From: Escherichia coli
GTDB lineage: Bacteria; Pseudomonadota; Gammaproteobacteria; Enterobacterales; Enterobacteriaceae
Assembly (NCBI RefSeq): GCF_003334335.1
Contig: NZ_QOWQ01000068.1
Direction: 5' to 3' (one strand)
Length of the DNA stretch: 8,688 bases
The position numbers and the translations under genes were made by a program. This document shows, piece after piece, positions 1 through 7,196 of this stretch (the first letter of the stretch is position 1; each line of letters opens with the position of its first letter). The notes under the pieces are model-generated. The model was not told where the DNA came from. It saw only the letters and a list, made by a program, of their open reading frames with translations, and did not search any database.

Positions 1-158
1 GCAAATCCGAAGGCCAGACGGGCACACTGAATCATGGCTTTATGCCGTAACATCCGTTTGGGATGCGACTGCCACGGCCCCGTAATTTCTCTGCCTTCGC
101 GGGTTTTGAATGGTTCGCGGCGGCATTCATCCATCCACTCGGTAACGCAGATCGGATG

Positions 159-283
159 ATTACCGGTTCGCTACCAGGGAAGAACGGGAAGGAAAGGTGA
201 GCACGAATCTGATTTTCAAGGAGTGTCGCCAGAGTGCCGCGATGAAGCGGGTGTTGGCATTTTATCGCGGCAATTTTCAATAG
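159..283 (+). pseudogene. ren: ren C-terminal remnant (lambda Ren-like); no usable N-terminus
   Basis: Frame 2 reads ..YRFATREEREGKVSTNLIFKECRQSAAMKRVLAFYRGNFQ*, which parallels the lambda Ren C-terminus (..YYRFATREEREGKMSTNLVFKECRQSAAMKRVL..). Upstream in the same frame there are stops at 83-85, 107-109 and 143-145, and resemblance to lambda ren starts only at about 159. Confidence 0.7.
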
Positions 284-320
284 ACTATGTACATAAAAAT
301 ATCATTTTTTTAATACATGT

Positions 321-512
321 CTAATTATTGGACGAAATTGGTTTTTGCTTTGGTTTAGTTAGCCTAGCAATCAAGCCAGAGGCAATAATGATGATCCAAG
401 CAATTTGATGCAATGCTACTCCAATATAAGAACCTTTATAGATAATAAAGGCATAGATCGCTAGAAACGAAATAAATATCCATAACGAAAGTTGATAAAT
501 TTTGGCGCGCAT
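321..512 (-). CDS. Small hairpin (2-TM) membrane protein, 63 aa, unknown function
   Basis: The ATG at 512 (MRAKIYQ..) is preferred over the TTG at 527. There are two about 20-residue hydrophobic helices separated by KGSY, and a basic C-tail (RLTKPKQKP). There is a weak GGA upstream. No family recognised; the resemblance to YiaA/YiaB two-helix proteins is only faint. Confidence 0.5.
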   Translation of the reverse strand: MRAKIYQLSLWIFISFLAIYAFIIYKGSYIGVALHQIAWIIIIASGLIARLTKPKQKPISSNN

Positions 513-768
513 ATTTAATCCAATCAATCAGAAAGACGAGTAATCATAGAGGTACTATCACCCGGGTAACTATTGCTATTATGAACGGATAGGATAGAGG
601 CTTCAATAACATATGCATCAAGTATGATGGAATATGTAGGTGAAAATGACTTGTGTCAAATTTGTGGAAATGAGTACCATGTTTCTCTGAAATTGATGTC
701 GTTAATGGCTAGTGATAGTGAACTTTTTTACTTTATAATTCCTTTGGTTATAACAATAAGGTAAATTT

Positions 769-1329
769 ATGAAGAAGATAATATTATTAGCCATGATTAT
801 TGGTTCTTTAACAGGTTGCGCTAGTGTGCCACCATTGAATTTTTCAACACCTAACGTGGGAGTTAGCCAGAAAAAAATAGATGCTGAAATTAAGTCATTA
901 ACGGTATCACTTGCTCGTCCAGATGAGCAGAAAGGGGATATCACTGCTGGTATGGAGGCTATAACTCCAATTTGGCGTGAATCTTTGCAGGAAGCACTCG
1001 ACCGAATGACTATTTTTCGTGATAGTTCACCAAATACGGTTAGCTTAAATGTTAAAGTGTTGGCTCTTGACGTTCCTGCTTTTGGTGTTTCAATGACAAC
1101 TAAAGCAATTGCAAGGTATGAAATAATCAACCGTGCGAATGGTGATATTATATATACGCAGGATATTGAGTCTACCGGTACTGTTCCAGCCAGTTACGCA
1201 TTCTACGGTATTGTTCGAGCACGCGAATCTGTTAATCGCGCGGTGCAAAACAACATAACGCAGTTCTTGCAAGCATTAGAAAGTGTTGATCTTTCTCGTC
1301 CAATGTTTCCTGTTAGGGTAGCTAAATGA
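769..1329 (+). CDS. Orphan outer-membrane lipoprotein, 186 aa
   Basis: The signal peptide carries the lipobox LTG|C17, with Ala at +2. An AAGG lies 8 nt upstream of the ATG. The stop overlaps the next start (ATGA). The mature part looks like a mixed alpha/beta domain. Its architecture loosely recalls YajG-type lipoproteins (tentative, from memory). Confidence 0.8.
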   Translation: MKKIILLAMIIGSLTGCASVPPLNFSTPNVGVSQKKIDAEIKSLTVSLARPDEQKGDITAGMEAITPIWRESLQEALDRMTIFRDSSPNTVSLNVKVLALDVPAFGVSMTTKAIARYEIINRANGDIIYTQDIESTGTVPASYAFYGIVRARESVNRAVQNNITQFLQALESVDLSRPMFPVRVAK

Positions 1330-1778
1330 AGCGATTATTCGTAATTGCTCCACTCTTAGTGTTGGTTGGATGCGCACAAAATATATCGCCAAATAGTTAT
1401 TCTGTTGGCTCTGTGGGCATGGTTAATCGAACTATCGCTGGTACAGTTATTAGTGCTAGGGGGGTTGATATCAGTGGGACTTCCGCGTTAGGCGGGACTG
1501 CTGGGGCTGCCGTGGGGGCAACCGCTGGTTCTGCGCTTGGTGGGGGAGTTCGTTCTAATATCGTTGGTGCCGTTGGTGGTGCAGTCATTGGTGGTATTGC
1601 CGGGGCAGCAATCGAATCTTCAGCAACAAAACAAACAGGCATGGAATATGTTGTCGAAACTGAGAATGGGAATTTAATGACCATTGTTCAAGGCAAAGAT
1701 CCGTTATTTACTCAAGGAAGTAAGGTCCTTGTTTTATACGGAAACCCTTCTCGCATAATAACAGACCCGCGTCACTAA
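1326..1778 (+). CDS. SlyB/Pcp-family glycine-zipper outer-membrane lipoprotein (17-kDa-antigen type), 150 aa
   Basis: Lipobox LVG|C16. A Gly/Ala zipper spans residues about 51-96 (GTSALGGTAGAAVGATAGSALGGG..GAVGGAVIGGIAGAAI). The C-terminal beta segment GMEYVVETENGNLMTIVQGK..KVLVLYGNPSRIITDPR is collinear with E. coli SlyB (..GVELEIRKDDGNTIMVVQKQ..RVVLASNGSQVTVSPR). An AGGG lies 7 nt before the ATG. Confidence 0.85.
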   Translation: MKRLFVIAPLLVLVGCAQNISPNSYSVGSVGMVNRTIAGTVISARGVDISGTSALGGTAGAAVGATAGSALGGGVRSNIVGAVGGAVIGGIAGAAIESSATKQTGMEYVVETENGNLMTIVQGKDPLFTQGSKVLVLYGNPSRIITDPRH

Positions 1779-1818
1779 CATACCTTTTGATTTTGTAAAA
1801 TCAATTCGTAATAATAAA

Positions 1819-1851
1819 GTCATCGGAGCTTGAACAACTCCGGTGACTTCT
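1819..1851 (+). terminator. Possible terminator or boundary hairpin after the lipoprotein operon
   Basis: GTCATCGGAG (1819-1828) pairs with CTCCGGTGAC (1838-1847) as a 10-bp stem with one G-U pair and a 9-nt loop, followed only by TTCT. A perfect AT-rich inverted repeat TTGATTTT/AAAATCAA lies at 1787-1804. The weak U-tract keeps confidence low. Confidence 0.3.
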
Positions 1852-1870
1852 GCGCTAAACGGGGACGTTT

Positions 1871-1972
1871 ATGCGCACATACAATCCAAACTCTCTTCTC
1901 CCTTCACAGATGCAGAAATGCACCTGCGATTTTTTGCATCCAGCGTCTGACCTCTGCGGAGGTGAAGCGTGA
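1871..1972 (+). CDS. ylcH: Small DLP12-type protein YlcH, 33 aa
   Basis: The ATG at 1871 gives [33 protein letters not shown]. Length and position (immediately upstream of ybcN and overlapping it by GTGA) match my recollection of K-12 ylcH. Confidence 0.6.
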
Positions 1973-2424
1973 ACCTACCACAAGATGGCATCAAACTGCA
2001 TCGCGGTAACTTCACCGCTATCGGCCAGCAGATCCAGCCTTATCTGGAGGACGGAAAATGCTTTCGCATGGTGCTTAAACCGTGGCGTGAGAAACGCAGT
2101 CTTTCCCAGAATGCACTCAGCCACATGTGGTACAGCGAAATCAGTGAATACCTCATCAGCAGGGGGAAATCGTTCGCTACCGCAGCATGGGTAAAAGATG
2201 CTCTCAAACACACATACCTCGGTTATGAAACCAAGGACCTGGTTGATGTCGTAACCGGCGAAATCACTACTATCCAGTCGTTACGCCATACCTCCGATCT
2301 TGATACCGGAGAGATGTATATCTTCCTGTGTAAGGTTGAAGCCTGGGCGGTGAATATTGGCTGCCACCTGACTATTCCGCAGAGCTGCGAGTTCCAGCAG
2401 CTCCGCGACAAACAGGAGGCGTAA
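1969..2424 (+). CDS. ybcN: NinB/Orf-family recombination protein (DLP12 YbcN), 151 aa
   Basis: GTG start at 1969. The sequence [43 protein letters not shown].. matches remembered YbcN/NinB. It sits at the head of the nin operon. Confidence 0.9.
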
Positions 2425-4030: not shown

Positions 4031-5113
4031 TTAGAACTGGTAAACCATACCTACAGCAACGATATCATCGGTAGCAACGCCAGATGCTTTCGTGAAATCG
4101 CTCTTATCAATCAGGTTGATTTTGTAATCAACAAAAGTGGACATATTTTTGTTGAAGTAATAGGTTGCACCTACATCAATATATTCAACCAGGTCCTGAT
4201 CACCCCACGCACCCAAGTCTTTTCCTTTAGATTGCAGGTAAGCAACGGACGGACGCAGACCGAAGTCGAACTGATATTGTGCAACTACTTCGAAGTTTTG
4301 TGCTTTGTTGGCAATATGGTTATTACCAAAAACAGTCATGTTCTGGGTTTCAGAATAGGTGGTAGCCAGATAGATGTTGTTCGCATCATATTTCAGACCA
4401 GCTGCCCATACTTCAGCATTTTGACCAGATGCATTCAGGCTGTTGTTACCGTAGATAACCTGATTATTAGTGCGGTCAGATTTAGCATAGGTTGCACCTA
4501 CACCGAATCCTTCATACTCATAAGTAGTGGAGAAACCGAAACCATCACCATTAGCTTCAGTTACGTCAGTGCGGTCATTTTTACCCTGATACTGAGCAGC
4601 AAAGTTCAGACCATCAACCAGACCAAAGAAGTCATTGTTACGATAAGTTGCAACACCTGTGGTGCGACCAGTCATGAATACATCTGTTTGGGTCCAGGTA
4701 TCGCCACCGAATTCTGGCAGAACGTCGGTCCATGCACCAATATCGTATGCTACACCGTAGTTACGGCCATAATCGATGGAGCCGTAGTCACCGAATTTCA
4801 GGCCAGCGAAGGCAAGACGGGTTTTATCTTTGGAGGAACCTTGAGATTCAGCGCGGTTGCCTTTGAATTCATATTCCCACTGACCGAAACCAGTCAGTTG
4901 ATCGTTGATTTGGGTTTCACCTTTGAAGCCAAGACGGGCATAAGTAGTATCACCATCATCTGCATCATTAGAGGAGAAGTAGTGCTTAGCATTAACTTTC
5001 CCGTACAGATCCAGCTTGTTACTGTCTTTATTATAAATTTCAGCTGCCTGAGCAGACATCGCCATCAGTACTGATGCAGCTACAGCAGAAATTGCCACTG
5101 TTAATTTTTTCAT
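4031..5113 (-). CDS. nmpC: OmpC/PhoE-family general porin NmpC (Lc-type), intact, 360 aa precursor
   Basis: The start at 5113 ([23 protein letters not shown]|AEIYNK..) has a signal peptide and an AAGGG SD. The sequence has porin hallmarks (..LDLYGKV.., ..GFGQWEYEF.., C-terminal ..VGMVYQF). The 20 extra N-terminal residues in the track ORF lack a signal-peptide context. Confidence 0.95.
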
Positions 5114-5540
5114 CGTGAGCCCTTTTTTTGAACTATTATTAAAAAATGATGTCACTGCGCGATAAATATTCATCTAATCAATGTGATTATTTCAAGATGT
5201 AAGTTTTGGTTTCTCATTTGATTTGTGAAGTAGATCTCTATTTTTATCTGAACTTTTTCTATCGAATCCTATTCATGGCTCTTGGCTGAATAAAAATAAA
5301 TCTATTAGCCAATTTATATTAATGGCTGTTATTTATAAGTGCTCTATAATTTGAAGATTCAATTTAAACCAGCTAAAAATAACGCTGGAAATTATTTGTT
5401 GGTTATTTGTTGAGATTTGCTTATGTATTTGTAGTGGTGTTTTCAATACTCGGTAGCATTCTCGCAAATATCATTTAGTGGTTTACGTACGTAAAAAATT
5501 GGTTATGCTGTTAAGAGTGGTTACTTCGTCACACAGCTTA

Positions 5541-5700: not shown

Positions 5701-5916
5701 ATGAAATCCATGGATAAGTTAACAACGGGTGTCGCCTATGGCACCTCAGCAGGTAGTGCCGGTTACTGGTTTTTACAGCTGCTCGATAAAGTCACGCCCT
5801 CACAGTGGGCAGCAATAGGTGTGCTGGGTAGCCTGGTATTTGGCCTGCTGACGTACCTGACAAACCTTTATTTCAAGATTAAAGAAGATAAGCGCAAGGC
5901 TGCGAGAGGTGAATAA
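5701..5916 (+). CDS. essD: Phage-21-type pinholin (S21-like), 71 aa with dual-start motif
   Basis: The ATG at 5701 follows [54 protein letters not shown] matches remembered EssD/S21. The second Met at codon 4 gives the classic holin/antiholin pair. Confidence 0.9.
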
Positions 5917-6902: not shown

Positions 6903-7196
6903 TTATTGTGAGCAATACACACGCGCTTCCAGCGGAGTATAAATGCCTAAAGTAATAAAACCGAGCAATCCATTTACGAATGTTTGCTGGGTTTCTGTTT
7001 TAACAACATTTTCTGCGCCGCCACAAATTTTGGCTGCATCGACAGTTTTCTTCTGCCCAATTCCAGAAACGAAGAAATGATGGGTGATGGTTTCCTTTGG
7101 TGCTACTGCTGCCGGTTTGTTTTGAACAGTAAACGTCTGTTGAGCACATCCTGTAATAAGCAGGGCCAGCGCAGTAGCGAGTAGCATTTTTTTCAT
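6903..7196 (-). CDS. borD: Bor serum-resistance outer-membrane lipoprotein, 97 aa
   Basis: MKKMLLATALALLITG|CAQQTFTVQNK.. has a lipobox and matches remembered lambda Bor/BorD. It sits immediately after Rz on the opposite strand. Confidence 0.95.
   Translation of the reverse strand: MKKMLLATALALLITGCAQQTFTVQNKPAAVAPKETITHHFFVSGIGQKKTVDAAKICGGAENVVKTETQQTFVNGLLGFITLGIYTPLEARVYCSQ

Follow-up and report, generated by a model that had tools for sequence, protein, structure and literature searches.

A rare antisense gene of lambdoid prophages for a predicted inner-membrane hairpin protein at the junction of the replication and nin modules

We analyzed a stretch of 8,688 nucleotides from Escherichia coli (RefSeq assembly GCF_003334335.1, contig NZ_QOWQ01000068.1), referred to here as the window, and in particular the open reading frame (ORF) at positions 321 to 512. 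The window covers the part of a lambdoid prophage that runs from the early-right region to lysis. Comparison with diverged homologues indicates that 321 to 512 is a real protein-coding gene, with purifying selection confined to the ORF frame, and that it belongs to a new, rare, and unnamed family of lambdoid prophages in E. coli, Klebsiella, and Enterobacter with ~10 sequences. Our best joint reading, to which we assign a probability of roughly 0.6, is that of an independently transcribed accessory (moron-type) gene for an inner-membrane hairpin protein at a cargo hotspot. The gene and its immediate surroundings are as follows.

321 to 512, minus strand: coding sequence of the 63-amino-acid (aa) two-helix protein, with start codon ATG at 512 to 510 and stop codon TAG at 323 to 321
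161 to 283, plus strand: 3' remnant of ren, annotated by RefSeq in identical DNA and convergently oriented to the small ORF
513 to 768, no strand assigned: AT-rich spacer of 256 bp between the small ORF and the lipoprotein operon, with candidate promoters of both
769 to 1778, plus strand: two-gene lipoprotein cassette (186-aa YajG-like protein and 150-aa glycine-zipper protein), read as independent cargo in the same slot

We regard 321 to 512 as a gene because diverged homologues keep its length and its start and because purifying selection acts in the ORF frame only. A word-indexed search of 5.8 billion proteins returned near-identical E. coli copies only, and an exhaustive HMMER search of 1.84 billion cluster representatives added three distant relatives of 60, 75, and 63 aa with 37 to 50% identity. 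Further homologues came from a profile search and from scans of viral, genome, and metagenome collections, giving a total of ~10 distinct diverged homologues with 33 to 52% identity. These form three to four subgroups (P and L numbers are our own handles for proteins and loci): the E. coli type; a Klebsiella type, with P0126 and P0129; a Klebsiella/Enterobacter type, with P0130, L063 to L070, and L077 to L082; and two singletons, P0128 and P0127. Homologues are 59 to 63 aa long, except for P0127, which was called at 75 aa, probably from a too-early start. They begin with M-R/Q-A/V/T-K at the aligned position, all end in a basic tail, and at L033 a stop codon immediately precedes the ATG of the homologue. 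The sequence-only reading that preceded this work had left the start codon in doubt between ATG 512 and TTG 527. Since the homologues begin at the aligned position and the L033 stop codon precedes the ATG, the comparison resolves the true start as ATG 512, and the 68-aa extension from TTG 527 is not supported.

Selection was assessed from pairs of diverged homologues. L033 and L038 differ at 16 synonymous and 7 nonsynonymous positions, with a ratio of nonsynonymous to synonymous differences (pN/pS) of 0.14 (Fisher p 5e-7), and L063 and L064 differ at 23 synonymous and 7 nonsynonymous positions (pN/pS 0.09; p 3e-12). Four more homologue pairs had pN/pS values of 0.07 to 0.14 in the ORF frame. 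In the control frames (two other sense frames and two antisense frames), pN/pS was ~0.9 to 4; the antisense frame that mirrors third positions had a value of ~0.2, yet contains 4 to 6 internal stop codons. Within E. coli, the spacer and ORF were present in 280 of 5,426 complete genomes (~5%), always with ≥99% identity. A frequent 1-bp insertion or deletion sits in the poly-A run beyond the stop codon, and one strain carries A3T. Because copies within the species are so similar, polymorphism there does not have the power to decide whether the ORF is coding.

The length of the ORF was considered as evidence and rejected, as 6 to 9% of composition-matched shuffles of the 485-bp spacer yield an ATG ORF of at least 63 codons. 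That figure is one of three points that would fit a chance ORF in an AT-rich spacer, with no product at all; the other two are that AT-rich DNA translates into I/F/L/K-rich peptides with a pseudo-transmembrane character and that RefSeq leaves the ORF uncalled. Diverged homologues nonetheless keep the start, the length, and a sequence motif, and pN/pS is ~0.1 in the ORF frame only, which makes a chance origin barely credible.

The product is predicted to be an inner-membrane helical hairpin of ~60 aa, with the N terminus and the basic C-terminal tail in the cytoplasm and a periplasmic turn of 2 to 4 residues. Kyte-Doolittle hydrophobicity over 15 residues reaches maxima of 2.6 (residues 10 to 24) and 2.2 (residues 37 to 51), and the C-terminal tail, RLTKPKQKPISSNN, is basic. 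AlphaFold2, with a four-sequence alignment, returned a helical hairpin with helices at residues 2 to 26 and 29 to 52 (mean predicted local distance difference test score of 71). The charges of the window protein, +2 at the N terminus, +1 in the loop, and +4 in the tail, are consistent with an N-in/C-in arrangement, and homologues are alike in this respect. Phage-borne homologues keep the positive-inside pattern (N terminus +2 to +3, loop 0 to +1, tail net +2 to +6), which is weakest in L041, with a net tail charge of 0. In the family alignment, the conserved motif Y-[IL]-G-V-x-L-[HN]-[QE] opens helix 2. Hydropathy, the AlphaFold2 model, and the charge pattern are all predictions, and together they agree with the earlier description of a 63-aa protein with two hydrophobic helices, N-in/C-in topology, and a basic tail. 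Three rare E. coli variants (P0003, P0004, and P0005) were also seen: one has an in-frame one-codon deletion in the Ile run, one is an 85-aa form whose C terminus differs from residue 50, and one is a truncated form of 42 aa. The 85-aa and 42-aa forms probably arose through rearrangement or at contig ends.

The general shape of a phage 21-type holin is similar, with two transmembrane helices arranged N-in/C-in and a tail at the C terminus that is charged. Phage 21 S, a class II pinholin of ~70 aa that corresponds to essD in the window, shares all of these features with the small protein as predicted, including the basic character of the tail. A lysis-related role, whether as a class II holin, an antiholin-like protein, or a lysis-timing factor, is nevertheless very improbable. 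The small gene is located outside the lysis cassette, 5 kb from essD-rrrD-rzpD and far from the endolysin, on the other strand, and antisense to the early operon. It lacks a dual-start motif, matches no holin family in Pfam or PHROGs, and has no sequence relationship to S. Moreover, the phage already has its own S21-type holin (5701 to 5916), and an hhalign comparison of the family profile with that holin gave a probability of 0.3%.

No named family accommodates the protein, in line with the earlier statement that none could be recognized; nothing in Pfam, NCBIfam, PHROGs, PADLOC, PDB, or Rfam matched. Scans of the window protein against Pfam, NCBIfam, PHROGs, and PADLOC gave nothing significant, the best match being phrog_17225 at an E value of 0.096. 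The same scans of the homologues gave subthreshold hydrophobic matches only (SdpI/YfhL, DUF998, and NMN transporter), save for one PADLOC match: P0130 (L039, 1057 to 1236) weakly matched the "4TM effector" model PDLC00721 (E value of 1.8e-4; 18.7 bits). This match probably reflects transmembrane composition, because neither the window protein (no PADLOC match at E values up to 1) nor P0126 (none at E values up to 0.1) shares it. Neither a search of PDB by sequence nor a Foldseek comparison of viral structures with the AlphaFold2 model returned anything meaningful, and literature searches on phage PhiR30_1, on the peptide sequences, and on the ren-ninB hotspot found nothing specific.

The position of the gene is more constant than its neighborhood. 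Wherever the flanks of a phage or prophage locus could be read, the small gene immediately follows the replication module and is on the strand opposite the early-right (pR) operon. The adjacent replication module is of the lambda O/P type, with ren in the E. coli copies, and of the DnaC or DnaB type elsewhere; the other flank consists of ninB or DUF1367, YbcO, and RusA or NinG, followed by Q. Within the window, the ren remnant marks the end of the early-right replication module, and 321 to 512 is the sole sizeable ORF between the ren stop codon (283) and the first lipoprotein gene (769). The ORF directly follows ren at the left edge of a low-GC insert, as its proposed location at the edge of an island had implied. 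Between ren and ninB, the gap is 73 bp in lambda compared to 1,685 bp in the window (ren stop at 283, start of ybcN at 1969). The GC fraction is 0.29 to 0.39 over 301 to 900, compared to 0.49 to 0.55 in ren and the nin genes, and 0.29 to 0.44 over the insert compared to ~0.5 in its flanks. Part of window positions 1 to 1900, including the ren- and ybcN-proximal flanks, matches 3,745 E. coli genomes, while the insert is found in only 280.

What lies on the 5' side of the small gene differs among relatives. In Klebsiella/Enterobacter-type phages, the 5' neighbor is a homologue of DNA polymerase III theta, divergently oriented and ~65 to 72 bp away.

L033, 5672 to 5929: theta homologue (PF06440, E value of 7e-36), first gene after the small antisense ORF
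L064, 4693 to 4944: theta homologue, same match and position
L077, 1200 to 1457: theta homologue, same match and position

At L077 (1200 to 3157), two unrelated genes, one for a membrane-anchored protein of 183 aa and one for a secreted protein of 122 aa, separate the small gene from theta. The corresponding space in E. coli (513 to 1968 in the window) is occupied by the lipoprotein pair. Since the cargo varies between relatives and the lambda gap is only 73 bp, these comparisons suggest that the replication-nin (ren-ninB) junction is a cargo hotspot on the 5' side of the small gene and place the small gene at the edge of that hotspot as its most constant resident. At L038, DinI and small ORFs are found downstream of theta.

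The sequence-only reading had offered two options, an independent moron or the inner-membrane arm of the lipoprotein module, and the second has not survived. As a component of a three-gene envelope module, the small protein would be co-regulated with the lipoproteins from the shared 256-bp region. The divergent arrangement across one AT-rich spacer, the fact that all three products are envelope proteins, and perfect co-occurrence (the same 280 of 5,426 E. coli genomes carry the small ORF and the lipoprotein pair) would all fit such a module. However, the co-occurrence carries no independent weight, because the E. coli linkage is a single block with ≥99% identity and thus of recent common descent. 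The 186-aa YajG-like lipoprotein has hundreds of relatives, and at every locus that we opened the 150-aa glycine-zipper protein comes next, so that the pair is, as judged from its distribution, a mobile two-gene cassette. The cassette was found without the small ORF in at least three contexts: in the Klebsiella oxytoca chromosome, flanked by an SRAP and a cold-shock gene, in Edaphovirga, and in another phage between a tape-measure gene and gpM. The small ORF was not found by tblastn at these cassette loci (L028/L029, L030/L031, and L032). Nucleotide homology of those copies to the window starts exactly at 769, the lipoprotein ATG, and the spacer at 513 to 768 is not common to other cassette copies. 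Conversely, homologues of the small protein outside E. coli have no lipoprotein neighbors (L033 to L040, L063 to L070, and L076 to L082), which also disposes of the idea that the small gene always travels with the pair. With different cargo in relatives and the pair present without the gene, we consider the small gene independent of the lipoprotein module and membership in it improbable. The first cassette gene is often labeled "UDP-N-acetylglucosamine acyltransferase," which looks like a propagated misannotation.

The claim that the small ORF diverges from the lipoprotein genes across a 256-bp AT-rich spacer (513 to 768) was borne out, with GC fractions of 0.29 to 0.37. The spacer and the 3' end of the ORF contain the following predicted signals.

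519 to 521, minus strand: GGA weakly resembling a Shine-Dalgarno sequence, 6 nt before the ATG, read from the sequence
578 to 606, minus strand: promoter-like TTGAAG-17-CATAAT with a leader of ~59 nt, from consensus scans and upstream comparison
543 to 548, minus strand: alternative -10-like TATGAT, 30 nt before the ATG, suggested by its positional match to the Klebsiella TATAAT
631 to 659, minus strand: second promoter-like TTGACA-17-CATATT, further upstream, from a consensus scan
281 to 323, minus strand: AU-rich hairpin of 43 nt spanning the stop codons of ren and the small ORF, a candidate terminator

Enterobacter/Klebsiella-type homologues have TTTGCA-17-CATAAT ~56 nt before the ATG; its conservation is confounded because the site overlaps the theta start codon there. 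At L033 and L038, the 71-bp spacer has diverged except for a 17-nt stretch that contains TATAAT, 33 nt upstream of the ATG, and that is identical despite a synonymous divergence of ~0.6 between these loci. Downstream of the ORF, the fold of positions 262 to 335 has a free energy of -13.9 kcal/mol (z -2.9). A G+C-rich hairpin directly follows the stop codon in all four homologue 3' flanks that were folded, and the same inverted repeat was recognized by eye in the remaining flanks. The hairpin has a short U-run in the Klebsiella type and takes the form GGCCACU...AGUGGCC in the L064 type. An Rfam search of window positions 1 to 2000 at E values up to 1 returned no family, and a LexA-box pattern search found no match. 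Positions 578 to 612 of the window, ATTATGAACG...CTTCAATA, resemble the start of the theta homologue in relatives (ATTATGAACGACTTCAATATTGC); the alignment is too short and weak to claim a relic of a replaced theta gene, and the resemblance may instead reflect a shared -10 element of the small gene's promoter.

The invariance of this arrangement could also mean that the unit is mainly regulatory, with a head-on leftward transcript that dampens or times read-through to the nin genes and Q and with the peptide secondary. The antisense transcripts paQ and oop of lambda are precedents for such regulation. Regardless of the neighboring cargo, each phage locus has the gene in antisense upstream of Q, and the hairpin sits between convergent genes where lambda has its tR2 terminator region. 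Strong purifying selection on amino acids and conserved length, however, show that the protein itself is selected. We therefore consider a mainly regulatory function rather unlikely, and interference could be an added effect.

A second alternative is a membrane-damaging small toxin, either like those of type I toxin-antitoxin systems or an abortive-infection effector, whose synthesis would be held low by antisense transcription or by the weak ribosome-binding site (RBS). The protein is very hydrophobic, with a basic tail, a weak RBS, and a prophage location; the transcript of the pR operon runs antisense across its gene; and one subgroup has the weak PADLOC "4TM effector" match (E value of 1.8e-4). 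In encoding a small hydrophobic peptide and being antisense overlapped, the gene resembles those of prophage type I toxins (Hok/Gef, Ldr, ZorO, and RalR type). It differs from them in that its product has two helices rather than one, and neither a cognate antisense small RNA nor an Rfam family was found in window positions 1 to 2000; no dedicated antisense promoter was identified. In addition, the predicted leader is short, while type I toxins typically have a long structured leader, and the window protein and its closest Klebsiella homologue lack the PADLOC match, which is probably due to composition. With pR off in a lysogen, antisense control would moreover be absent exactly when the cell must survive. 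A toxin is thus unlikely, if somewhat less so than a mainly regulatory unit.

Of the two options raised earlier, the independent moron describes the gene best, as a moron-like unit that borders a low-GC insert of a lambdoid prophage. Morons in the sense of Juhala and Hendrix are recognized by additional DNA between genes that neighbor each other in related phages, by differing base composition, by a promoter and terminator of their own, and by expression from the repressed prophage (PMC3594210). Extra DNA (1,685 compared to 73 bp) and deviant GC content are both found in the window. Promoter-like hexamers and a hairpin after the stop codon are present as well; these are consensus matches whose counts are not above those in shuffled sequences.

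The first described moron product, HK97 gp15, is an inner-membrane protein that blocks genome entry of superinfecting phages (PMC3594210). At 62 aa, gp15 is close in length to the 63-aa window protein, and both are membrane inserted, the latter by prediction. Both genes are extra DNA in a lambdoid phage operon with their own transcription signals and expression from the prophage, the last two being predictions for the small gene. In contrast to the small protein, gp15 (YebO-like) has only one transmembrane helix, at its N terminus, followed by a long hydrophilic tail, and its gene belongs to the tail operon and shares the strand of its neighbors. The small protein is not a member of the gp15/YebO group: gp15 has one hydrophobic segment, the small protein has no Pfam match, and there is no sequence relationship between the two (hhalign of the family profile against gp15 gave a probability of 0.2%).

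T4 Imm and P22 SieA are likewise inner-membrane proteins of small or modest size that target the genomes of incoming phages, and T4 Imm also has two transmembrane segments; no similarity to either was detected by tblastn of two family members against 50,697 phage genomes or in the Pfam and PHROGs scans, and gene position and regulation differ. Lambda bor and lom provide a further comparison as accessory genes expressed independently of the surrounding lytic operon, as is predicted for the small gene. Their products are outer-membrane proteins or lipoproteins encoded in the late region, whereas the small gene encodes an inner-membrane-type hairpin in the early-right region.

Several observations weigh against our reading of the gene as an independently transcribed accessory gene. 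RefSeq does not call the ORF in any copy inspected; some GenBank submitters do (e.g., XSB42264.1 in phage PhiR30_1). The family is very small, with ~10 distinct sequences among the billions searched. Among 50,697 phage genomes, a tblastn search with two family members as queries found the gene in one isolated phage only, PhiR30_1, and an alignment-based profile scan of 185,579 species-representative genomes matched one locus. The RBS is weak, with GAGAC in homologues at the position equivalent to the window GGA. Promoter-like sites in the region are not more numerous than expected from shuffles, and the hairpin in the window is AU rich and lacks a clean U-tract. The scans described above showed no similarity to known exclusion, immunity, holin, or toxin families, so that any functional assignment, including the exclusion, immunity, or toxic role suggested earlier, draws on analogy and gene placement alone. 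Finally, the 2.8-kb contig L041 has no phage genes in view beside the gene for P0127. This diverged member (L041, 2182 to 2364) was probably miscalled with a 15-residue N-terminal extension, and its gene is divergent from an Mla-type ABC transporter, with an ATPase and a permease that has an N-terminal extra domain. L041 may represent a non-phage branch of the family.

Under the accessory-gene reading, promoter-like sites, a weak RBS, the ORF, and a hairpin would form a self-contained unit. Because the gene runs antisense to an operon kept silent in lysogens, we infer that it is most likely expressed in lysogens: with pR silent, the small gene would be transcribed from the repressed prophage, and after induction, head-on transcription from pR would shut it down. 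The product would then be a lysogenic-conversion (moron-type) protein acting at the inner membrane, where it might block genome entry of superinfecting phages, as do HK97 gp15, T4 Imm, and P22 SieA, or modulate a host membrane protein. By analogy with those proteins, one or the other of these two activities is what we tentatively consider most likely, while holding it as a possibility well short of even odds. A bolder and more doubtful proposal is that the family represents a new class of lysogeny-gated two-helix membrane effectors whose synthesis is tied to the prophage state by gene geometry alone. Such an effector might exclude superinfecting lambdoid phages at the step of DNA entry or might be a membrane toxin in abortive infection.

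The prophage that contains the window is defective: cI, cro, O, and P, and with them the immunity and replication regions, are deleted in this copy. At window positions 1 to 283, a recT fragment is joined to the last 123 bp of ren; in other strains, the same ren remnant is fused to a lambda exo gene. Strains 042 and N1420 and phage PhiR30_1 retain the whole region, including an intact ren. DNA identical to the window is present at the lambda attachment site beside ybhC in many strains. RefSeq annotation gives the gene order as a recT fragment, a ren fragment, two lipoprotein genes, ybcN (the ninB homologue), ninE, and ybcO, followed by rusA, ylcG, quuD, a porin gene, essD-rrrD-rzpD, bor, and ybcV. 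Two of these genes have been mentioned as comparisons.

5701 to 5916: essD, S21-type holin, the window prophage's own holin
6903 to 7196: bor, encoded against the flow of its neighbors

RefSeq also calls a 33-aa hypothetical protein at 1871 to 1972, after the second lipoprotein gene, with its end overlapping the ybcN start. The prophage porin gene (4031 to 5173, minus strand) is ompC/nmpC-like and an intact ORF of 380 codons, the first 20 of which are probably an overextension; in some strains it is a pseudogene with an internal stop codon.

Small membrane proteins are systematically missed by annotation, and the gene described here, uncalled in the inspected RefSeq copies yet under selection, is an example. 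The constancy of its antisense placement, between replication and nin modules, points to a function in the prophage state, and small inner-membrane moron products, such as HK97 gp15, have proved to be phage-exclusion factors. The carrier phage PhiR30_1 is isolated and forms plaques (on E. coli C), which makes the function directly testable. The ren-ninB junction could be mined for lysogenic-conversion and defense genes. If the proposal of a lysogeny-gated effector is true, the seat of this gene would mark an early-region hotspot, much as the defense hotspots of P2 and P4 are marked.

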